Notes under the pieces: model-generated | The model's database searches: none | What the model was told of the DNA's origin: nothing | What the model saw: only the letters and a program-made list of their open reading frames with translations | In this document: positions 42,364-60,843 of the stretch, in pieces | Layout of the letters: each line of letters begins with the position of its first letter | Position numbering within the stretch: position 1 is the stretch's first letter | Assembly: GCA_963807085.1 (NCBI GenBank) | Contig: CAWEBB010000026.1 | Span: 314-64,313, forward strand | From: an uncultured Alphaproteobacteria bacterium | Lineage (GTDB): Bacteria > Pseudomonadota > Alphaproteobacteria > Bin95 | DNA length: 64,000 bases | Direction of reading: 5' to 3' | Made by a program: the position numbers and the translations under genes

Positions 42364-43250
42364 ATGGCCAGTTTGAAGGATCTGCGCGACCGTATCGGCA
42401 GCGTGAAATCAACGCAGAAGATTACGTCCGCCATGAAAATGGTGGCGGCGGCAAAGCTGCGTCGCGCCCAGGAACAGGCCGAGGCGGCCCGTCCCTATGC
42501 GGAGCGGATGGAGCGGATGCTGTCGTCGGTGGGAAGCAGCGCGCGCGGCACGCCGGGCGCGCCGCCCCTGCTGGCGGGTACCGGCAGCGAGCAAAAACAC
42601 CTGATCGTGCTGGCGACCGCCGACCGCGGGCTGTGCGGCGGCTTCAACGCCAATCTGGTGCGGCAGGCGCGCATTCTGATCGCCGACCTGAATGGTCAGG
42701 GCAAGGATATCGAGGTGATGTTCGTCGGCCGGAAGGGCCGCGATGCGCTCCGCCGCGAACTGGGCTCTATGATGGGCGAAACCGTCGAAGGCATTGGCCG
42801 CAAGGCGGTCGCGTTCGAAGAGGCTGACGGCATCGCCGATCGTCTGCTCGAGCGTTTCGAGGCGGGCGACTTCGATGTGGCCCATCTGATTTACGCCAAA
42901 TTCAAGTCGGCTATCTCCAACGAAGTAACCGTCCAGCAACTCATCCCGGCGCCGATCCCGGACTCGGCGACGAGAACGCCGAAGACCTGGGCGGCGCCGT
43001 CTATGAATACGAACCGTCCGAGGAAGAGATCCTGAAAGATCTGCTGCCCCGAAATGTGTCGGTTCAGATCTACCGTGCATTGCTCGAAAACGCCGCCAGC
43101 GAACACGGCGCGCGCATGGCGGCGATGGACAACGCGACCCGCAATGCCGGCGAGATGATCAAAGGCCTAACGCTGACCTATAACCGCACCCGTCAGGCGA
43201 TGATCACGACAGAACTGATCGAGATCATTGCCGGCGCCGAAGCTCTATAG
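42364..43250 (+). CDS. atpG: F1 ATP synthase subunit gamma, frame broken by a 1-nt deletion near 42960-42972
   Basis: N-terminal 200 aa ([36 protein letters not shown]...) in ORF 42364..43035. The C-terminus ([42 protein letters not shown]...[11 protein letters not shown]) continues in the -1 frame (ORF 43056..43250). Restoring one base gives ~295 aa. Confidence 0.9.
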
Positions 43251-43326: not shown

Positions 43327-44773
<1,447 letters not shown>

Positions 44774-44795: not shown

Positions 44796-45215
44796 ATGAC
44801 GGACGGAAAAGTGGACTTTGAGCTGGTTTCGCCGGAGCGGCTGCTGGCATCGAAGGCGGTAGACATGGTGGTGGTGCCGGGCGGCGACGGCGATTTCGGC
44901 GTTTTGCCCGGTCACGCGCCCCTGCTCTCGACCGTGCGGCCGGGCGTGATTTTGGTTTACGACGGGCGGGAGATCTCCGACCGCATCTTTGTGGCGGGCG
45001 GTTTTGCGGAAGTAACCCGCGAGCGCTGCACGGTTCTGGCCGAGGTCGCGATGCCGGTTTCGGAGATCGACACGAATACGACCGAGCAGGATTTGCGGGA
45101 CGCCCAGGAAGATGTTGCCACCGCCACATCGGACCACGAGCGCAGTAACGCCCACCGGCGGGCGGACGTGGCCCAGGCCAAGCTAGACGCCGTGCGCCGT
45201 TCCGTCGTTCACTAG
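44796..45215 (+). CDS. atpC: F1 ATP synthase subunit epsilon
   Basis: 139 aa; VDFELVSPERLL...VLPGHAPLLSTVRPGVI. Confidence 0.92.
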   Translation: MTDGKVDFELVSPERLLASKAVDMVVVPGGDGDFGVLPGHAPLLSTVRPGVILVYDGREISDRIFVAGGFAEVTRERCTVLAEVAMPVSEIDTNTTEQDLRDAQEDVATATSDHERSNAHRRADVAQAKLDAVRRSVVH

Positions 45216-45256
45216 AGCAGATCCCGATCCGTTTGGATCGGGTGAGTTTGCTCTAG
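45212..45256 (+). terminator. Nested hairpin immediately after the atpC stop (putative atp-operon terminator); carries the same 17-nt core as 8130-8146
   Basis: ctagagca gat cccgatcc gttt ggatcggg tgagtt tgctctag: inner 8-bp stem/4-nt loop followed by a T-containing stretch, enclosed by an outer 8-bp stem. Confidence 0.55.
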
Positions 45257-45462
45257 ATCTAAGAATTAGATCCTCTTCTCCCCCTCGCCCATGAAGCCGC
45301 TGTGCAGGATACCCTGCGCGGCGGTTTTTCTTTGGGAGAAATAGCGGGCTCAATCGGATGGCCGCCGGCGCTCACCTATGGGCATTGCCGGCAGTCTCTG
45401 TTAGGTTCTGGTCTGTCTCTTTCGGCTGCATGGTCGGAAGGCAAAAGGAAAGGCAAACACGC

Positions 45463-46428
45463 ATGACAGATCGATCGTCGCAAGACGATGGGTTGGGCTT
45501 TGCCCCGGAGCACGATGTGCCCGTGCCGTATATGAAGCGTTTGCGGGACTATTATCTCGCACTCGGCTACGGCAACCCCTATCGCTGGGCGCAGTACAAG
45601 GACGTACCCTTTACGCCCCTCACCAAGCCCCTGAACCAGACCAAGGTCGGCTTGGTGGTGACCGCAGCCCCCTATCAGCCCGACAAGGGTGACCAGGGCC
45701 CCGGCGCGGCCTATAACGCCGCGGCGAAATTCTATCGGGTCTATACCCAGCCGATCGAGGGCGAGCCCGACGTGCGCGTCTCCCATATCGGCATCGACCG
45801 CAAGCACACGACCGCAGCCGATATCCACAGCTATTTCCCGCTGAAGGCGCTGAAACAGGCGGCGGCGGAAGGGCGGATCGGCGCGCTAGCCGAGCGCTTC
45901 GTCGGTACGCCCACCAACCGCAGCCAGGTCGCCACGATCGAACAGGATTGCCCGGACGTGCTGGCGGAACTGCGCTCGGATGGGGTCGAAGCCGCCGTCC
46001 TCGTCGCTGCTTGACCGGTGTGCCATCAGACCGTGAGTTTGACCGCACGCTATCTGGAAGCGAACGGCATTCCGACCGTCATCATGGGCTGCGCCAAGGA
46101 TATCGTGGAGCATGCGGGCGTACCGCGCTTCCTCTTCAGCGATTTCCCGCTCGGCAATGCGGCCGGCAAGCCGCATGACCCGGAATCGCAACGCGAGACG
46201 CTGGCAATGGCCCTGGACCTGCTGGAGGCCGCCACCGGCCCCCGCACCACGCGGCAATCGCCGCAGCGCTGGAACGATGACGCGGACTGGAAGCTCGACT
46301 ACCAGAACGTGGACCGCATCCCGCCGGAGGAGATCGCCCGCCGCCGGGCAGAGTTCGACGAGGTAAAGCGGGTCGCCAAGCAACGCCGGGACGATGCCGG
46401 GGGCGGTTCCGCCGCCGCAGCGGAATAA
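45463..46428 (+). CDS. GrdB/PrdB-family (glycine/sarcosine/betaine/D-proline reductase protein-B-like) reductase with in-frame TGA at 46012-46014: candidate selenoprotein (U-P-V-C motif)
   Basis: ORFs 45358..46014 and 46018..46428 share one frame and are separated only by TGA. The joined product is 321 aa (MTDRSSQDDG...AVLVAA-U-PVCHQTVSLTARYLEANGIPTVIMGCAKD...) with an AAGGA RBS before the ATG at 45463. The UxxC arrangement and ~320-aa size fit protein-B-like selenoproteins; the family assignment is from memory of the fold. No convincing SECIS hairpin found by eye. Confidence 0.5.
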
Positions 46429-46641
46429 ACAGGACGGGCGAGTTCGGGTTGCCTCCGCAAGCGTCGGTACGCCGCTATCGTCATTGCGAGGAATTGCGGC
46501 CAAATAGCCGGGGGACGAAGCAATCCAGCGCCGCCGGCTCTCCGCACCGGCCGGGGGTTGTCTCGCCCGCCTTACCGCCGGGCTCGCAACGGCGGCGATT
46601 GGGATGCGGTTGGCGAAAGCTTGTTAGTTGAGAGTGGAAAA

Positions 46642-47859
46642 ATGACAGAGAACCTGCCCTTGAGCGGCATTCGCGTGATCGACATCGGCACGCTCATCGC
46701 CGGGCCGTTCGCCGCGACGCTGCTGGGCGATTTCGGCGCGGAGGTGATCAAGGTCGAGCAGCCCGGCCGCGGCGACGCGCTGCGCGGCTCTCCCGTCGAT
46801 GGCAAGGCCAACCGCTCGCCTAATTGGCTGGTCGAGGGGCGCAACAAAAAGTCGATCACCCTGAACCTGCGGGTGCCCGAAGGCCAGGCGCTGCTGAAGG
46901 AACTGATCGGCCACGCCGACGTGCTGGTCGAGAACTTCACGCCGGGTACGCTGGAGAAGTGGGGGCTCGGCTGGGATGTGGTGCACGAACTGAACCCGCG
47001 CCTGATCATGACCCGCGTTTCGGGCTATGGGCAGGTTGGGCCGTACTCCAAGCGCTCGGGCTATGACCGGATCGCACTGGGCTTTTCCGGCTACATGTAC
47101 CCGACCGGCTTTCCGGACCGCTTTCCGGTGCGGCCGGCCTTTGCGACGGCCGACTACAACACCGGCACGTTTGCCGCGCTCGCGACCATGTTCGCGCTCT
47201 ACCACCGGGATGCCGGCGGCAGCAGCGGGGGCTCAGGAAAGGGCCAGATGATCGACCAGGCGCTGTATGAGGCGCCGTTCCGGATCACTGCCGACATGAT
47301 GACCATGTTCGCGCGCACGGGCGAAAACCGCGAGCGCATCGGCAACCGCAACCCGACCTTCACGCCGGCGGGCACATTCGAGACCAAGGACGGGCGCTAT
47401 GTCCAGATCGCAGCGGGCGGCGACGGGGTCTGGCCCCGCCTTGCGAAGGCGATGGGACAGGCGGAACTGGCCGAAGATCCCCGCTACAAGACCACAGCCG
47501 AGCGCTCAAAGCGCGCCGACGAGATGGAGGCGATGCTGGCCGACTGGGTCGCGACCATGGACTTCGCCGAGATCGAGCCGCTGCTGGTTGGCCTCAACGT
47601 GCCCTTCGGCGGCATTTATACGGCGGAAGATATCGCATCGGACCCCCACTACGCGGCGCGCAACAACATTGCCCGCGTGCCAGATGCGGAGTTGGGCGAG
47701 GTCACCATGCCCGGCGTCTCGCCACGATTGGAGGGCACGCCCGGCCGCATCACCCACGCGGGTGAAGAGATCGGCGCGCACAACGGCGAGGTCTATGGCG
47801 ACCTGCTCGGTAAGTCCGAGGTGGAGATTGCGGCGATGAAAGAGGCGGGGGTGATTTAG
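46642..47859 (+). CDS. CoA-transferase family III (CaiB/BaiF) protein
   Basis: 405 aa from the internal ATG at 46642 with a GGA RBS (MTENLPLSGIRVIDIGTLIAGPFAATLLGDFGAEVIKVEQPG...). Co-oriented 210 nt downstream of the GrdB-like gene. Confidence 0.85.
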   Translation: MTENLPLSGIRVIDIGTLIAGPFAATLLGDFGAEVIKVEQPGRGDALRGSPVDGKANRSPNWLVEGRNKKSITLNLRVPEGQALLKELIGHADVLVENFTPGTLEKWGLGWDVVHELNPRLIMTRVSGYGQVGPYSKRSGYDRIALGFSGYMYPTGFPDRFPVRPAFATADYNTGTFAALATMFALYHRDAGGSSGGSGKGQMIDQALYEAPFRITADMMTMFARTGENRERIGNRNPTFTPAGTFETKDGRYVQIAAGGDGVWPRLAKAMGQAELAEDPRYKTTAERSKRADEMEAMLADWVATMDFAEIEPLLVGLNVPFGGIYTAEDIASDPHYAARNNIARVPDAELGEVTMPGVSPRLEGTPGRITHAGEEIGAHNGEVYGDLLGKSEVEIAAMKEAGVI

Positions 47860-48109: not shown

Positions 48110-50629
48110 ATGCTTATGAGTAATTCCCTTGCGAACTCGATCTGCACGCTGGGGTTCGCCTTCCTGGTGGCAGTTGCTTCCACCGCCGTGGCCCAGCAGG
48201 TTACGGGTGAACTTGGCTCTCCGGCCGCCACAACCACCATCGACGGCAAACAACTTCCCACACCTGATCCCGCCTTCGGCGGCGTGATCAAGGACGACGC
48301 TCTTCAGTCCAAGCCGTGGTGGGCGCCGCGCATTGTCCCGCCGAAACAAGCGCCGAACATCCTGCTTATCATCACCGATGACGCTGGGTTCGGCGTGCCG
48401 AGCACCTTTGGTGGCGTCATTCCAACGCCGACTATGGACCGGGTGGCAAATGCCGGCCTCCGCTACAACAACATCCATTCGACAGCCCTGTGTTCGCCGA
48501 CACGCGCGGCGCTGATCACGGGCCGTAACCACCACTCGGCCGGCTTCGGCGTCATTGCCGAGCAAGCCACCGGCTACCCCGGCTATAATAGTATTATTGC
48601 CGAAGATAAGGCCACGATCGGACGGATCCTTCTGGAGAATGGCTATGCCACCTCCTGGTTCGGCAAGGATCATAACACGCCGGCCTTTGCCGCAAGCCAG
48701 GCCGGGCCATTCGACCAGTGGCCGACTGGCCTGGGCTTTGAGTATTTTTACGGTTTCGTGGGCGGCGACGCGAACCAGTGGCAGCCAAATCTGTTTCGCA
48801 ATACGACGCAGATTTACCCCTTTGACGGCAAGCCGGAATGGAACCTTATTACCGGCATGGCGGATGACGCCATAGACTACCTGAACCGTCTCAACCAGAC
48901 GATTCCTGACAAACCCTTCTTCGTAAAGTACGCGCCAGGCGCCACGCACGCCCCCCATCACCCGACCAAGGAGTGGGTGGAAAAGATCAGTGCGATGCAT
49001 TTGTTTGACGAGGGATATAACAAGGTCCGGGAGCAGATCTTCGAGAACCAAAAGAAGCTTGGCGTTATTCCGCAAGACACGCAGTTGGAGCCGTGGCCGA
49101 CGGACCTGCTGAAGAGTTGGGACGACCTTCCCGCTGAAGAGCGTAAATTGTTCATCAAGCAGGTGGAAATTTTTGCGGCCTATGCTGCCTACAACGACCA
49201 CGAGATCGGGCGTGTCATCCAGACGATCGAGGATATGGGCAAGCTCGACAACACACTGATTATTTACATCAACGGCGACAATGGCACGAGCGCCGAGGGT
49301 GGACCTTTGGGTACTCCAAATGAAGTCGCGTTCTTCAATGGCGTCAACGAGATGCCGGTAAAGACACAGATGAACTGGTATGATGTCTGGGGCACCGAGC
49401 AAACCTACAATCACATGTCCGCAGGCTGGTCCTGGGCGTTCGACACGCCGTTCACCTGGTTCAAGCAAAATGCCTCCAAACTCGGTGGCATCCGCCAAAG
49501 CATGGCAGTCTCATGGCCGGCGGGCATCAAAGACAAGGGTGGCATGCGCGAACAATTCATGCATGTTATCGACGTAGTACCTACTCTCCTCGAAGTATCT
49601 GGCATCGCCGCACCTGAAATGGTGGATGGCATCAAGCAGGCGCCGATTGAGGGCACGAGTTTCGCCTATACCTTCAACGCGGAAAACGCCGAGGCGCCCT
49701 CGCAGCACAAAATCCAGTATTTCGAGATGATGGGCCAGTGGGCGCTCTACGACGAAGGCTGGTTGCTCAGCACCAAAGTGAATCGCGCACCGTGGCAGGC
49801 CTTTGGGGTGGCCAATCCCGATCCGCTCAATAACCAGGTGCTCGAACTCTACGACCTGAATACGGACTTCAGCCAATCGAAAAACATCGCTGCCCAGCAT
49901 CCCGACAAGGTTAAGGCGATGAAGGCGATGTTCATTGAGGAAGCGAAAAAGTACCAGGTCTTCCCGATGGATGCCTCAGTCGCAGCCCGTTTGGTCGCAC
50001 CGCGCCCGAACATCACCGCCGGCCGAACGGAGTTTGTTTACACGCATCCGATGGTTGGTCTCCCGCAAGGCGACTCGCCGTCACTCCTGAACACTTCCTA
50101 CACGATCACGGCGGAGATCGATGTGCCTGAAGGTGGGGCCGAGGGCATGATCCTTACCTCCGGCGGGCGCTTTGCCGGCTATGGCTTTTACCTGCTTGAA
50201 GGCAAGCCGGTGTTCCTCTGGAACCTGATCGATCTGGAGCGCATCAAATGGGAAGGTCAGGAAGCGCTGACGCCAGGCAAGCACACCATTGAGTTCGACT
50301 TCAAATATGAAGGCCTGGGGACCGGAACGCTGCGCTACAATAATATGAGCGGCCTCGGCCGCCCCGGCACCGGCGAACTTAAAGTAGACGGCAAGACTGT
50401 CGCGACCAAGCGGATGGAGAAAACCATTCCGATGATCTTGCAGTGGGACGAGTTGTTCGACATCGGCTCCGATACGCTGACGGGCGTCAATGACGCGGAC
50501 TACAAGCCTCCGTTCGCCCTGACCGCAAAACTCGACAAGCTGACGATCAAAGTGGATCGGCCGCAATTGTCAGCCGAGGACATCAAGAAACTCAGTGCCG
50601 CCCAGCGCAACAACAAGTCAAGCGAGTAG
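48110..50629 (+). CDS. Arylsulfatase (formylglycine-dependent sulfatase), secreted
   Basis: 839 aa; signal peptide; sulfatase signature ALCSPTRAALITGRNHH (C-x-P-x-R) plus the second sulfatase motif GKDHNTP. The gene and its flanks are at visibly lower GC than the surroundings. Confidence 0.85.
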   Translation: MLMSNSLANSICTLGFAFLVAVASTAVAQQVTGELGSPAATTTIDGKQLPTPDPAFGGVIKDDALQSKPWWAPRIVPPKQAPNILLIITDDAGFGVPSTFGGVIPTPTMDRVANAGLRYNNIHSTALCSPTRAALITGRNHHSAGFGVIAEQATGYPGYNSIIAEDKATIGRILLENGYATSWFGKDHNTPAFAASQAGPFDQWPTGLGFEYFYGFVGGDANQWQPNLFRNTTQIYPFDGKPEWNLITGMADDAIDYLNRLNQTIPDKPFFVKYAPGATHAPHHPTKEWVEKISAMHLFDEGYNKVREQIFENQKKLGVIPQDTQLEPWPTDLLKSWDDLPAEERKLFIKQVEIFAAYAAYNDHEIGRVIQTIEDMGKLDNTLIIYINGDNGTSAEGGPLGTPNEVAFFNGVNEMPVKTQMNWYDVWGTEQTYNHMSAGWSWAFDTPFTWFKQNASKLGGIRQSMAVSWPAGIKDKGGMREQFMHVIDVVPTLLEVSGIAAPEMVDGIKQAPIEGTSFAYTFNAENAEAPSQHKIQYFEMMGQWALYDEGWLLSTKVNRAPWQAFGVANPDPLNNQVLELYDLNTDFSQSKNIAAQHPDKVKAMKAMFIEEAKKYQVFPMDASVAARLVAPRPNITAGRTEFVYTHPMVGLPQGDSPSLLNTSYTITAEIDVPEGGAEGMILTSGGRFAGYGFYLLEGKPVFLWNLIDLERIKWEGQEALTPGKHTIEFDFKYEGLGTGTLRYNNMSGLGRPGTGELKVDGKTVATKRMEKTIPMILQWDELFDIGSDTLTGVNDADYKPPFALTAKLDKLTIKVDRPQLSAEDIKKLSAAQRNNKSSE

Positions 50630-53024: not shown

Positions 53025-54617
53025 ATGCAAGCCGATTATGTGATCGTCGGCGCTGGCAGTGCCGGCTGTGTGCTCGCCAACCGCCTGTCGGCCAAGGGTG
53101 CGCGCGTCGTATTGCTGGAGGCAGGACCAGCGGACCGCAATCCGTACATCCATATTCCCGCGGGCGTCCTCAAGCTGCTCGATCATCCGGTGCTCAACTG
53201 GAATTACCAGACCGAACCGGAGGCTGCGACGGGCAACCGCTCCCTGCACTGGCCGCGGGGCAAGGTGCTGGGCGGCTCAAGCTCGATCAACGGCATGCTG
53301 TTCGTGCGCGGCAATCCGGCGGATTTCGATGGCTGGGCACAGATGGGCGCGCGCGGCTGGAGCTACGATGAATGCCTGCCTTATTTCAAGTCCATGGAAA
53401 ACTACCCGGCGGGTAATCCCAGGTATCGGGGCAAGGGCGGCCCCCTGCAGATCGACGACTACCGAACCACCCTGCCGCTGACCCATATGTTCGTGCGGGC
53501 GGCGGAGCAAGCAGGGCATCACAAGGTGGACGACCTGTCCGGCGCGACTCCGGCGGAGGGGGTCGGCTACAGCCAGATGACCCGCATCGGCCGCCGCCGG
53601 GGCTCGACGGCGCGAACCTTTCTCGCCGAAGCGCGGAAGCGCCCGAACCTGATCGTGGAGACGGAGGCCTACGCCACGCGCCTGACCTTCGAAGGCAAGC
53701 GCTGCACCGGCGTCTGGATCCGCCAGCGGGACCAGGACCGGCATATAAGGGCGGCGCGGGAGGTTATCGTCTCGGGCGGCACCATCAACTCGCCGCACCT
53801 GCTGCATGTCTCCGGCATCGGCCCAGCCGATCATCTGCGAGACATAGGGGTCGAGGTCGCGCACGACCTGCCCGGCGTGGGTCAGAACCTTTCCGACCAT
53901 TACACCGTCCGCGTCTCCCACCGGGCCGTCCGCACACGCAGTATAAATGAGTTGTCACGTTTTCCTCATGTGGTGCCGGAAGTGGCGAAATGGATGGTGA
54001 AGGGCAACGGCGCGCTGACCTTTGGCGTCTCGTCGGCCCAGTGCTACACCTATAGCCGCGAAGGGCTGGCCTCGCCCGACATCCAACTGCTGTTCACGCC
54101 TGCCAGCTACGACAACAACGTTTTCGGCGTACTGGAAAGGAAGCCGGGCGCCACCATCGCCATCTCGGTCGCCCGACCCTCCAGCAGGGGCGAGATCATG
54201 GCGGTGTCGGCCGATCCCTTCACCCGACCGGCGATCCGGCCGAATTTCTTGAGCGACCCGGAGGATTTGCGCATCTCCAAGGAAGGCATCCTCCAGGCGC
54301 GCGAGATTTTCGGGCAGCCGGCCCTTTCCAGACGCCTGGCGGAGGAAACCTCGCCCGGCGCGGACGTGCAGTCGGAGGCGGATTTGGAGCAGTTCATCCG
54401 CGAGACCGGGCGCACGATCTATCACTGCGTCGGCACCTGCAAGATGGGCGAAGATCCAATGGCGGTAGTGGACAGCCGCCTGCGCGTGCACGGCATGGAG
54501 GGCCTCCGCGTCGTGGACGCCAGCATCATGCCGACGGTCACGACCGGCAACACCAACGCGCCCACCATCATGATCGCCGAAAAGGCCAGCGCCATGATTT
54601 TGGAAGATGCGGGTTAG
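53025..54617 (+). CDS. GMC-family FAD oxidoreductase (choline dehydrogenase-like)
   Basis: 530 aa; [22 protein letters not shown] (GxGxxG FAD fold), [15 protein letters not shown]-terminal GMC signature. Confidence 0.9.
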
Positions 54618-58594: not shown

Positions 58595-59428
58595 TCAATA
58601 GGGGCGGTCGCCGGCAACGGTGACCCGATAGCCGCTCCGCACCTGGGGAAAGTAGTCCCACATGGCCAGATGCTGCACGGCCCGGTTGTCCCAGAACGCC
58701 ACCGAGTCCTTTGCCCAGGAGAAGCGGCAAACGAACTGCTCTTTGCGGTTATGGGCGTAAAGGAATTCGAGAATGGCTTTGCTCTCGTCCTCCGGGATGC
58801 CGATGATGTACTGCGTGAATACCGGGTTGACGAAAATGCCCTTCTTGCCGGTCACCGGATGGGTGCGGATCACCGGGTGGTCGGCGTGCGGGAACTGCCT
58901 GGTGTCGTCCTTGCCGTCGATGCGGGCGCGGCGGTTATAGTTCGGCGTGCCGTCGTGCCGTGCGGTCAGGCCGCCAAGGAACTGCTTCATCGGCTCGCTC
59001 AAAGCCTCATAGGCGGCGTTGGAGCTGGCGAACAGCGTGTCGCCACCGCTCGGCGGAACGGTATGCAGATGCAGGATGGAGCCCATCGGCGGCTCCGGAT
59101 CGCACGACACATCGGAATGCCAGCGGTGGCCGGCTACCTGTTTCGAGTTCTCGTCGGCGTGGATGCGCAGGATCTCCGGGTGCCCTTCCGGCCCCGGCGC
59201 CGACGGATGAATGTGCAGCGGGCCGAAGCGGCGGCCGAAATCCTTGTGCTGCTCCAGGGTCATGTCCTGGTCGCGAAAAAAGATGACCTGGTGGGCCATC
59301 AGCGCGTCGTGGATTTCCTGGAACTGCTGGTTTCCGAGCGGCTCCGCCAGCTTCACGCCGTGCACCTCGGCGCCAACGGTCGGGGTCAGCGGCCGGACTT
59401 CGATGGTTTCGTAATGGATCGCGGACAT
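58595..59428 (-). CDS. TauD/TfdA-family Fe(II)/2-oxoglutarate-dependent dioxygenase (tandem paralogue)
   Basis: 277 aa; WHSDVSCDPEPPMGSILHL...GGDTLFASS...; roughly 45-50% identical to the neighbour by eye. Confidence 0.8.
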   Translation of the reverse strand: MSAIHYETIEVRPLTPTVGAEVHGVKLAEPLGNQQFQEIHDALMAHQVIFFRDQDMTLEQHKDFGRRFGPLHIHPSAPGPEGHPEILRIHADENSKQVAGHRWHSDVSCDPEPPMGSILHLHTVPPSGGDTLFASSNAAYEALSEPMKQFLGGLTARHDGTPNYNRRARIDGKDDTRQFPHADHPVIRTHPVTGKKGIFVNPVFTQYIIGIPEDESKAILEFLYAHNRKEQFVCRFSWAKDSVAFWDNRAVQHLAMWDYFPQVRSGYRVTVAGDRPY

Positions 59429-59676: not shown

Positions 59677-60843
59677 ATGGTTCAACCCCGCCTGCCGCTT
59701 GAAGGCATCAAGGTCGTCGAAGTCGGCCAGGCCCTGGCCGGCCCGCTCTCCGGCGTCATCCTGGCCGATCTGGGAGCCGAGGTGATCAAGATCGAAAAGC
59801 CGGGTGGCGGCGACGATGCCCGGCTGTGGGGACCGATGGCGACGGAAGACGCCTCGCTGATGTTCAACGCCACCAACCGCTCAAAAAAATCGGTGATCCT
59901 GGACCTGAAAGCACCGGAGGACCTGGAGAAGCTATACGCCCTGATCGGCGAGGCCGACATCTGCATCCAGAACCTGCGTGCCGGCGTGGCGGACAAGGGC
60001 GGCTTCGGCGCGGCCGACCTGATGGCGGTCAACCCGCGCCTGATCTATTGCCAGATCTCTGCGTTCGGCAGCGAGGGGCCGCTTGCCCTGCATCCGGGCA
60101 TGGACCCGCTGGCGCAGGCCTATGGCGGCGTCATGACCCTGACCGGCCGGGCGGACGATCCGCCCACCTTCTGCGCCCCCGCGATCAACGACACTGCGAC
60201 CGGCATGTGGGCCGTCATCGGCGCGCTGGCGGCGCTGGAGGAGCGGCGGCATACGGGCAAGGGCAAGGCCATCGGCTGCTCGCTGTTTGAAAGCGCGGTG
60301 CAATGGGTGAACGGACCATTGAATGCCTATCTGCACAACGGCACCGCGCCGGTGCGCACCGGAGCCGCCTCGCCGAACCTGATTCCTTATCAGGTGTTCG
60401 AGACCGCCGACCGCCCGATCTGCCTGGCCGCGGGCAATAACCGCCTGTTTCTGCGGTTCGCCGAGGCCGTGGGCAAGCCTGAATGGTGCGAGGACGCCCG
60501 TTTCAACGCGCCCGGCGCCCGGTCCGATAATCGCGAGACCCTGGTCCCGCTGATCGCCGAAGTGTTGGCGACCGACACCTGCGCCGCCTGGATCGAGCGG
60601 CTGGAAGCGGTGGGCGTGCCCTGCTCGCCCGTGAACGACATTCCGGCCCTTGCCGAGTCCGAGCAACTGGCGGCGGTCAAGATGGTGCAGCCGGTGCCGG
60701 GCCAAAATTTCACCGTCACCGGCCTGCCGATCACGCTGGATGGCGAGCGACCGCCGATCCGCGCGGCCTCCCCCCGCCTCGGCGAGCATACGGACGAGGT
60801 GCTGGACGCGCTGAATAGGGGCGGGGCGAAGGCCGCCCAATAA
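59677..60843 (+). CDS. CoA-transferase family III (CaiB/BaiF) protein
   Basis: 388 aa; LEGIKVVEVGQALAGPLSGVILADLGAEVIKIEKPGGGD. Confidence 0.85.
   Translation: MVQPRLPLEGIKVVEVGQALAGPLSGVILADLGAEVIKIEKPGGGDDARLWGPMATEDASLMFNATNRSKKSVILDLKAPEDLEKLYALIGEADICIQNLRAGVADKGGFGAADLMAVNPRLIYCQISAFGSEGPLALHPGMDPLAQAYGGVMTLTGRADDPPTFCAPAINDTATGMWAVIGALAALEERRHTGKGKAIGCSLFESAVQWVNGPLNAYLHNGTAPVRTGAASPNLIPYQVFETADRPICLAAGNNRLFLRFAEAVGKPEWCEDARFNAPGARSDNRETLVPLIAEVLATDTCAAWIERLEAVGVPCSPVNDIPALAESEQLAAVKMVQPVPGQNFTVTGLPITLDGERPPIRAASPRLGEHTDEVLDALNRGGAKAAQ

Follow-up and report, generated by a model that had tools for sequence, protein, structure and literature searches.

A probable selenocysteine codon followed by a SECIS-like hairpin in an alphaproteobacterial PrdB/GrdB-like gene adjoining a CoA-transferase gene

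We analyzed a stretch of 64,000 nucleotides (the window) from contig CAWEBB010000026.1 of an uncultured Alphaproteobacteria bacterium (GenBank assembly GCA_963807085.1), in which a gene of the PrdB/GrdB superfamily is interrupted by an in-frame TGA. Two open reading frames (ORFs) of the same frame, 45358..46014 and 46018..46428 on the + strand, are joined across this single TGA (46012-46014), which is directly followed by the codons ccg gtg tgc. One-frame translation of 45463-46428 yields 321 residues with one internal stop, ...GVEAAVLVAA*PVCHQTVSLTARYLEANG..., where the stop corresponds to residue 184 and gives the motif U184-P-V-C187. The ORF list and the translation agree in this with the original prediction of two same-frame ORFs split by one TGA and about 321 residues long when joined. 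From the comparisons described below, we are highly confident that 45463-46428 is a single gene that decodes selenocysteine (Sec) with the help of a bacterial Sec insertion sequence (SECIS), and the in-frame TGA is very probably a real Sec codon in a PrdB/GrdB-like redox enzyme that public annotation has cut in two. The locus carries the following features, with hairpin positions, here and below, numbered from the U of the UGA codon.

45463..46428, + strand: predicted PrdB/GrdB-superfamily (PF07355) selenoprotein gene with the motif U184-P-V-C187; 321 codons, then TAA at 46426-46428.
46012..46014, + strand: UGA very probably read as Sec, residue 184, as judged by codon conservation and alignment with the PrdB TGA.
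46021..46023, + strand: TGC codon of Cys187, the proposed resolving cysteine of the UxxC motif; invariant in all homologues and aligned with the Cys of the PrdB G-T-C-H motif.
46026..46042, + strand: putative SECIS core, a 17-nt hairpin of 6 bp with the loop CGUGA at 46032-46036, from the single-sequence fold and the RNAalifold consensus of 61 sequences.
46018..46050, + strand: extended lower helix of the putative SECIS, nt 7-12 with 34-39, fully paired in the window and retained in part elsewhere among the species.

A six-frame scan for in-frame TGAs lying between long open stretches with high GC content at third codon positions returned seven candidates in the window, and the open stretches around the TGA at 46012 are by far the longest of the seven, with 239 codons before it and 137 after. 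TGA is also the terminator of 19 of the 64 ORFs picked in the window; it is therefore otherwise an ordinary stop codon here, and there is no reassignment of the genetic code in this genome. In the public protein collection (NCBI, ENA), the 183-aa N-terminal piece of the window gene stands as a protein of its own, and the counterpart from Enhydrobacter aerosaccus is GenBank SKA02111.1, a 176-aa protein named 'GRDB' that sits in a 90%-identity cluster of 262 such fragments. Neither the 136-aa C-terminal piece nor the full-length window protein, written with X at the Sec site, was found in that collection. The predicted misannotation as two fragments is thus seen for the N-terminal pieces, in the window as in E. 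aerosaccus, and was not recovered for the C-terminal one.

The window protein, used with Cys in place of the stop for profile matches, scores 30.6 bits with Pfam PF07355 (GRDB), for which the gathering score is 22. The aligned segment runs out at profile position 346 of 347, which is residue 182, two residues short of the stop, and this end point is consistent with a Sec at the GrdB position. The NCBIfam PrdB model (TIGR04483) gives 91.9 bits and its equivalog cut-off of 300 is not reached. Scores with the NCBIfam GrdB, GrdF, and GrdH models are 38-45 bits; of the GrdB models, TIGR01917 and TIGR01918 give 37.7 bits versus 602 and 39.3 bits versus 65.45, both below the cut-off, and the GrdB alignment is limited to about positions 263-422 of the profile, short of the full-length architecture (~430 aa). 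These scores place the window protein in the superfamily, yet outside any characterized subfamily. A database search returned thousands of matches, the best 120 of which are full-length proteins of 300-330 aa with 64-70% identity, aligned from residue 1, and all of these 120 read C-P-[VI]-C-H at the site.

Genuine prdB genes, annotated as such in RefSeq, were found by tblastn of plasmid records. The prdB coding sequence of Peptoclostridium acidaminophilum (L086:3956-4669) has an in-frame TGA, and its product aligns with the window protein in BLASTP over 224 residues with 34% identity (E = 3e-29). The two TGAs share one alignment column, VLVAA-U-PVCHQ in the window and AVFTAG-U-GTCHR in P. acidaminophilum PrdB, so that the stop does fall, as originally predicted, at the UxxC Sec position of PrdB-type proteins. 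Terrisporobacter PrdB has the same AG-U-GTCHR motif, and its gene lies within a prdC-prdA-x-prdB cluster. According to the passage of PMC1088965 that cites Kabisch et al. 1999, the Sec of PrdB has been established experimentally. The P. acidaminophilum gene itself (plasmid NZ_CP007453.1, 260271-260984) is Sec-annotated, has no prdA or prdC within 4 kb, and looks like an orphan copy in a classical Stickland organism, with a second match elsewhere in the record.

The AlphaFold model of a 69%-identical Cys homologue (P0001; predicted local distance difference test score of 83, predicted template modeling score of 0.84) has residue 181, the Cys equivalent of U184, between strand 174-178 and helix 182-197. 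By homology with this model, Sec184 would sit where a β-strand ends and a long helix is about to begin, and Cys187 would follow after one turn, as is usual for a redox-active CxxC or UxxC pair. No solved structure specifically like the fold of the modeled homologue was found. Residue C210 of the window protein (MGCAKD) is an Ala (MGAAKD) in four Sec forms from Enhydrobacter/Reyranella (L050, L056, L071, and L076), which carry a Cys in GNSCGKP where the window reads GNAAGKP; since this third conserved Cys is replaced in these Sec forms, only the UxxC pair is universal.

Genomic loci were collected by scanning one genome per species, which gave 80 loci with 63-88% protein identity, almost all from Alphaproteobacteria and including the cultured E. 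aerosaccus ATCC 27094 and Reyranella aquatilis KCTC 52223. In 61 of the 80 loci, among them all 14 closest relatives, the codon at the aligned place is TGA; the other 19 have TGC or TGT. The alignment therefore holds Cys or TGA at this position and nothing else, in the 120 proteins as in the 80 loci, which bears out the view that a chance nonsense mutation is unlikely. The accompanying claim that selenoproteins are rare in Alphaproteobacteria fails for the PrdB-like family, where TGA is the majority state among the closest species. The frame 3' of the TGA is open for 130-138 codons in 57 of the 61 TGA forms. Among these forms, nonsynonymous (dN) and synonymous (dS) divergence amount to 0.215 and 1.06 for the downstream part and to 0.278 and 1.08 for the upstream part, and the values of the Cys forms are similar. 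As judged by these rates, purifying selection is equally strong on both sides of the TGA. The evolutionary evidence (dN, dS, and the open frame) thus speaks for same-frame translation beyond the UGA, and a conserved TGA followed by an open, constrained frame is not what chance nonsense, gene decay, or a miscalled base would produce.

Directly 3' of the TGA, the sequence folds into a hairpin whose core starts 11 nt past the UGA. In the window, the predicted fold comprises the pairs 7-12/34-39 and 15-20/26-31, closed by the loop C21-G22-U23-G24-A25, and the RNAalifold consensus of the 61 TGA forms consists of the core 15-20/26-31 plus the pairs 11-12/34-35. Within the lower helix, the pairs 8-38, 11-35, and 12-34 hold in every species form, whereas 7-39, 9-37, and 10-36 fail in 16-21 of 49 distinct sequences. 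Synonymous positions of the core are nearly invariant: the third codon positions 21, 24, 27, and 30 are C, G, U, and G in 61, 61, 60, and 61 of the 61 TGA forms, and in just 10, 5, 2, and 7 of 20 Cys forms (the 19 loci plus a matching Cys codon from the window's second motif search), while third positions outside the core (6, 9, 12, 39, 42, and 45) vary freely in TGA and Cys forms alike. The Ser codon is the GC-poor AGU, paired with A19, in 60 of 61 TGA forms, and AGC in 15 of 20 Cys forms. Pair 15-31, formed by the third position of a His codon and the first position of one for Val, Ile, or Thr, covaries among the 61 TGA forms (C-G in 33, U-A in 22, C-A in 6). The structure pairs 87.9% of the cells of the alignment, a value that drops to 16-48% after a slide by 1-3 columns, and its covariation score is matched by none of 500 shuffles, a measure that related sequences inflate. 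Across the 12 hairpin codons, dS is 0.60 in the TGA forms, versus about 1.06 in the flanks.

The check for a SECIS fold proposed with the original prediction thus yields a conserved stem-loop with one covarying pair and a small, G-containing apical loop directly 3' of the UGA, shared by 61 species. In E. coli fdhF, Liu et al. reportedly described, in 1998, a spacing of 11 nt between the UGA and the upper stem-loop of the SECIS. In E. coli, an upper stem-loop of 17 nt suffices as a minimal SECIS for SelB binding (PMC11431864), and a small apical loop with a G is a common feature of bacterial SECIS elements (PMC1088965). The window hairpin has in common with the fdhF SECIS its place in the coding region directly 3' of the UGA, the 17-nt upper stem-loop, the 11-nt start, and a small G/U apical loop; it differs in having no bulged U in the upper stem, in its CGUGA loop, and in a poorly conserved lower helix. 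One Cys form with TGT (L015:6526, WHUA01000005.1) keeps the exact hairpin of the TGA forms, caccagaccgtgagtctgg, which suggests that Sec was recently replaced by Cys here and the SECIS left as a fossil.

Several points weigh against the reading of the locus as a selenoprotein gene. No selA, selB, selD, or tRNA-Sec was found in the 64-kb window or in the fetched flanks of the loci: Pfam scans of the window proteins gave no selA, selB, or selD, the window has no tRNA gene at all, tRNA scans with ARAGORN over the window and 86 loci gave no tRNA-Sec, and tblastn of the window and 85 loci with E. coli SelD and with the window EF-Tu as a proxy for SelB found none. With no Sec genes in the available sequence, the Sec trait of the source genome is assumed. 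The genes of the window include ribosomal protein operons, EF-Tu, EF-G, the atp operon, glnE, and transporters, among others; Sec machinery is present in many Alphaproteobacteria, at times with tRNA-Sec nested in selB (PMC8124441). The hairpin is unexceptional on the window sequence alone (z = -1.43; 16 of 200 shuffles fold as well), just one of its pairs covaries, and the invariance elsewhere could partly reflect amino-acid constraint on PVCHQTVSL. A search of the entire window against Rfam at gathering thresholds gave no match, and a relaxed one of the surroundings of the TGA (E <= 10) gave only a chance match to an archaeal small nucleolar RNA (8.6 bits). Finally, at least two frameshifts in essential atp genes indicate that the base calls of the window are imperfect, and every TGA form has an in-frame GTG past the TGA, at codon +2 in 41 of them and at codon +7 in 20.

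These points lend themselves to other explanations of the TGA. A TGC-to-TGA nonsense mutation, a single transversion, could have turned the active-site Cys codon of a Cys-type PrdB-like gene into a stop and left a pseudogene; TGC or TGT does occur in 19 of 80 related species, and the apparent frameshifts of atpD and atpG could hint at gene decay. The same TGA is, however, present in 61 species with 63-88% protein identity, which a dS of about 1 shows not to be recent clonal copies, the 130-138 downstream codons are open with a dN/dS of about 0.2, equal to that upstream, and the synonymous sites of the hairpin are frozen in the TGA forms only, all of which makes a pseudogene extremely improbable. 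It is scarcely credible, too, that the TGA is a sequencing or assembly error for TGC or TGT. The extra T in atpD at about 43943 and the frame change in atpG near 42960-43000 do reveal errors in the assembly, but these are indels rather than substitutions; TGA and the same hairpin recur in each of the 12 closest relatives, which come from independent assemblies, and at the SECIS-specific synonymous positions the window has the bases that characterize TGA forms, the AGU codon for Ser included.

Translation might instead stop at the UGA and restart at a GTG, either that at 46018 or the one within the hairpin, producing a split enzyme of two polypeptides, as the recurrent GTG and the N-terminal fragment predicted by gene callers would allow. 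We consider this very unlikely: P-V-C-H-Q-T, the stretch from the TGA to the second GTG that contains the partner Cys, never varies; 20 forms have GTC or GTT as their +2 codon, so that any restart site would be unconserved; and in the Cys forms, as in true PrdB, the Cys or Sec of this site lies within one continuous chain. Nor would any Shine-Dalgarno-like need explain the frozen bases of the hairpin, whose 15-31 covariation points to an RNA structure. UGA followed by C is a weak termination context, and this, together with the lack of Sec machinery in the available sequence (window and fetched loci), would suit read-through by a near-cognate tRNA carrying Cys or Trp, with the hairpin as no more than a stimulator. 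To this we give a small chance, against which stand the homology of the site to the experimentally established Sec of PrdB, a hairpin size and loop content as in SelB-binding SECIS elements (PMC11431864, PMC1088965), the spacing of 11 nt that it shares with E. coli fdhF, and the scoring of the same 'PrdB' family as a selenoprotein family with SECIS in metagenomes (PMC2398784). Taken as a whole, a PrdB/GrdB-superfamily selenoprotein with a SECIS and a CoA-linked gene context is the strongly favored explanation.

This context is set by a coenzyme A (CoA)-transferase gene downstream of the predicted selenoprotein gene.

46642..47859, + strand: family III CoA-transferase gene; match to PF02515 with 383.9 bits over positions 1-366 of 366 of the profile.

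The CoA-transferase ORF opens at 46558, and the ATG at 46642 is its likely start. Among its nearest solved relatives are 4ed9 (CaiB/BaiF family) and succinate-hydroxymethylglutarate CoA-transferase, and the protein reaches no NCBIfam equivalog cut-off and fits no characterized subfamily. Of the loci with enough sequence, 46 of 54 with TGA and 8 of 18 with Cys have a CoA-transferase homologue immediately downstream in the same orientation, and in two further Cys-form contigs (L084 and L085) it overlaps or nearly abuts the stop codon of the PrdB-like gene. A profile search also revealed an AMP-binding acyl-CoA-synthetase domain fused N-terminally to the PrdB-like domain, in proteins of 793-817 aa that form at least 10 clusters at 54-61% identity. 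In the fusions P0155 and P0302-P0310 (loci L082, L089, and L090), the PrdB-like domain is of the Cys type; two of the fusion loci have a thiamine pyrophosphate (TPP) enzyme directly downstream and a dimethylglycine-dehydrogenase-like gene nearby, and at the third, three sulfatase genes adjoin. In Phreatobacter stygius an AMP-binding gene lies two genes from the PrdB-like gene, while a stand-alone AMP-binding homologue of Roseovarius is not beside one. On plasmid p546-2 of Roseomonas haemaphysalidis (L087), a Cys-form PrdB-like gene lies tail to tail with an annotated SelO adenylyltransferase and has no adjoining CoA-transferase. In the literature searched, the coverage of which was incomplete, we found no link of PrdB/GrdB-like proteins with CoA-transferases or synthetase fusions.

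The association of two different CoA-activating enzymes with the same domain suggests a CoA-thioester substrate, and from the gene context we tentatively propose that the enzyme may act on an acid activated in this way. It counts against this proposal that its basis is confined to neighborhood and fusions, and that 8 of 54 TGA loci and 10 of 18 Cys loci are without an adjoining CoA-transferase. As for the nature of the acid, hints at a betaine-type or sulfonated compound are weak and inconsistent across loci. These hints are the TPP-enzyme and dimethylglycine-dehydrogenase-like genes at two fusion loci, the sulfatases at the third and in the window, and the TauD-like genes that 11 of the 80 loci have less than 6 kb from the PrdB-like gene. 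Sulfatase, TPP enzyme, dimethylglycine-dehydrogenase-like, aldehyde dehydrogenase, and glucose-methanol-choline (GMC) oxidoreductase genes show no recurrence among these loci.

The CoA-transferase gene of the window is directly followed by a gene for an 839-aa sulfatase with a signal-peptide-like N-terminus (48110-50629), unconserved in the 80 loci, and, 2.4 kb past the latter, by a choline-dehydrogenase-like GMC oxidoreductase (53025-54617) that is present in 4 of them. A TauD-family dioxygenase gene (58595..59428, - strand) and a second family III CoA-transferase gene (59677..60843, + strand) are located about 12 kb downstream. In the atp operon, atpD (43336-44773) is split into the overlapping frames 43336..44430 and 43949..44773, and removal of one T from 'gagttcggg' at about 43943 restores its frame; this single-base insertion is most likely an assembly or sequencing indel. 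The atpG ORF (gene at 42364-43250) ends early at 43035 and its conserved C-terminus continues in another frame, with the shift at about 42960-43000, which makes it the second frameshift in an essential gene, within 1 kb of that in atpD. A long imperfect inverted repeat at 45212-45256 (ctagagca...cccgatcc gttt ggatcggg...tgctctag) overlaps the end of atpC, has no T-run, and could be the terminator of the atp operon or a repeat element.

The original prediction had assigned the gene to a GrdB/PrdB-family reductase, and of this the superfamily membership stands, while orthology to the B subunit of proline or glycine reductase does not. The matches to the Pfam GRDB and NCBIfam PrdB/GrdB models, and the name 'D-proline reductase (dithiol) PrdB' that sources give to relatives, would fit the B subunit of a true D-proline reductase or of a glycine/sarcosine/betaine reductase. 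This identity is nevertheless most unlikely for a protein that scores far under the equivalog cut-offs (92 versus 300 for PrdB, 38 versus 602 for GrdB) and that, with 321 aa versus 237-241 aa, exceeds PrdB by about 42 N-terminal and 60 C-terminal residues. Moreover, neither the window nor any of 88 loci gave a tblastn hit (E <= 1e-3) with Terrisporobacter PrdA or PrdC as query, whereas real prdB is part of a prdC-prdA-prdB cluster, and the conserved partner here is a CoA-transferase. With PrdB (TIGR04483; P. acidaminophilum, Terrisporobacter glycolicus), the window protein shares the U-x-x-C-H motif, a Sec in the same column, and the hydrophobic strand before it, and the PrdB genes also have a coding-region hairpin after the UGA. 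PrdB belongs, however, to Stickland-fermenting Firmicutes that have the pyruvoyl proprotein PrdA and PrdC, whereas the window gene is alphaproteobacterial and lies beside a CoA-transferase gene. GrdB, GrdF, and GrdH (PF07355, TIGR01918) are of the same Pfam family and likewise have UxxC, but only the C-terminal half of GrdB (~430 aa) aligns with the window protein, and no GrdA, GrdC, GrdD, or GrdE context is present at the window gene.

The gene fits well the 'PrdB' described from ocean metagenomes by Zhang and Gladyshev (Sargasso Sea, 2005; Global Ocean Sampling (GOS), 2008), a family of mixed Sec and Cys forms with a Sec majority, from aerobic environmental bacteria. 'Proline reductase PrdB' (pfam07355, UxxC) was among the most abundant selenoprotein families of the Sargasso Sea, with 42 genes (PMC1088965), and the GOS metagenomes hold 235 Sec versus 110 Cys forms (PMC2398784). 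Compared by description, with subfamily identity inferred, the window gene and this 'PrdB' are most probably the same family; as the latter has been known since 2005, the selenoprotein family itself is not new. The Zhang and Gladyshev papers give no gene context and no function beyond the PrdB label, and recent reviews list the family simply as D-proline reductase (PMC9312934, PMC13188914). What the present analysis suggests as an addition to the known family is its pairing with CoA-transferases and its fusion to acyl-CoA synthetases, in place of proline or glycine reductase partners.

By analogy with the established bacterial Sec pathway, the UGA at 46012-46014 would be decoded as Sec with the hairpin at 46026-46042 acting as SECIS, which would bring SelB, guanosine triphosphate, and Sec-tRNA(Sec) to the ribosome, where they would compete with release factor 2. 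The carboxylic acid would first be activated as a CoA thioester by the CoA-transferase, with which the predicted selenoprotein would form a two-gene unit, and the thioester would take the activating role played by the pyruvoyl group in PrdB/GrdB systems. As in PrdB, the selenolate would then attack a substrate carbon, here proposed to be the α-carbon of the acyl-CoA, and break a C-N or other C-X bond with release of the leaving group; Cys187 would resolve the selenoether to a Se-S bond, which could be re-reduced by a thiol system such as thioredoxin. A bolder reading, which we regard as speculative and rather unlikely, is that these proteins constitute a distinct class of pyruvoyl-independent Sec/Cys reductases of aerobic bacteria, which would carry out reductive cleavage at the α-carbon of CoA-thioester acids supplied by a dedicated CoA-transferase or a fused synthetase. 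The substrates may, on this reading, be an N-methylated glycine, a sulfonated acid, or a similar osmolyte-derived acid, and the class is possibly the same as the abundant marine 'PrdB' family.

For annotation, the locus would be entered as one 321-aa selenoprotein instead of a separate 183-aa N-terminal piece, and the same correction applies to dozens of Alphaproteobacteria, including the cultured E. aerosaccus and Reyranella species. Few selenoprotein families are as abundant in ocean metagenomes as 'PrdB', which is still labeled by analogy with the clostridial proline reductase. With the proline-reductase partners absent nearby, the CoA-transferase or the fused synthetase offers a testable lead to the real substrate, and cultured strains with the Sec form exist in which this lead can be followed. 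If the proteins do form a distinct class, this would mean Stickland-type chemistry outside anaerobic fermenters.

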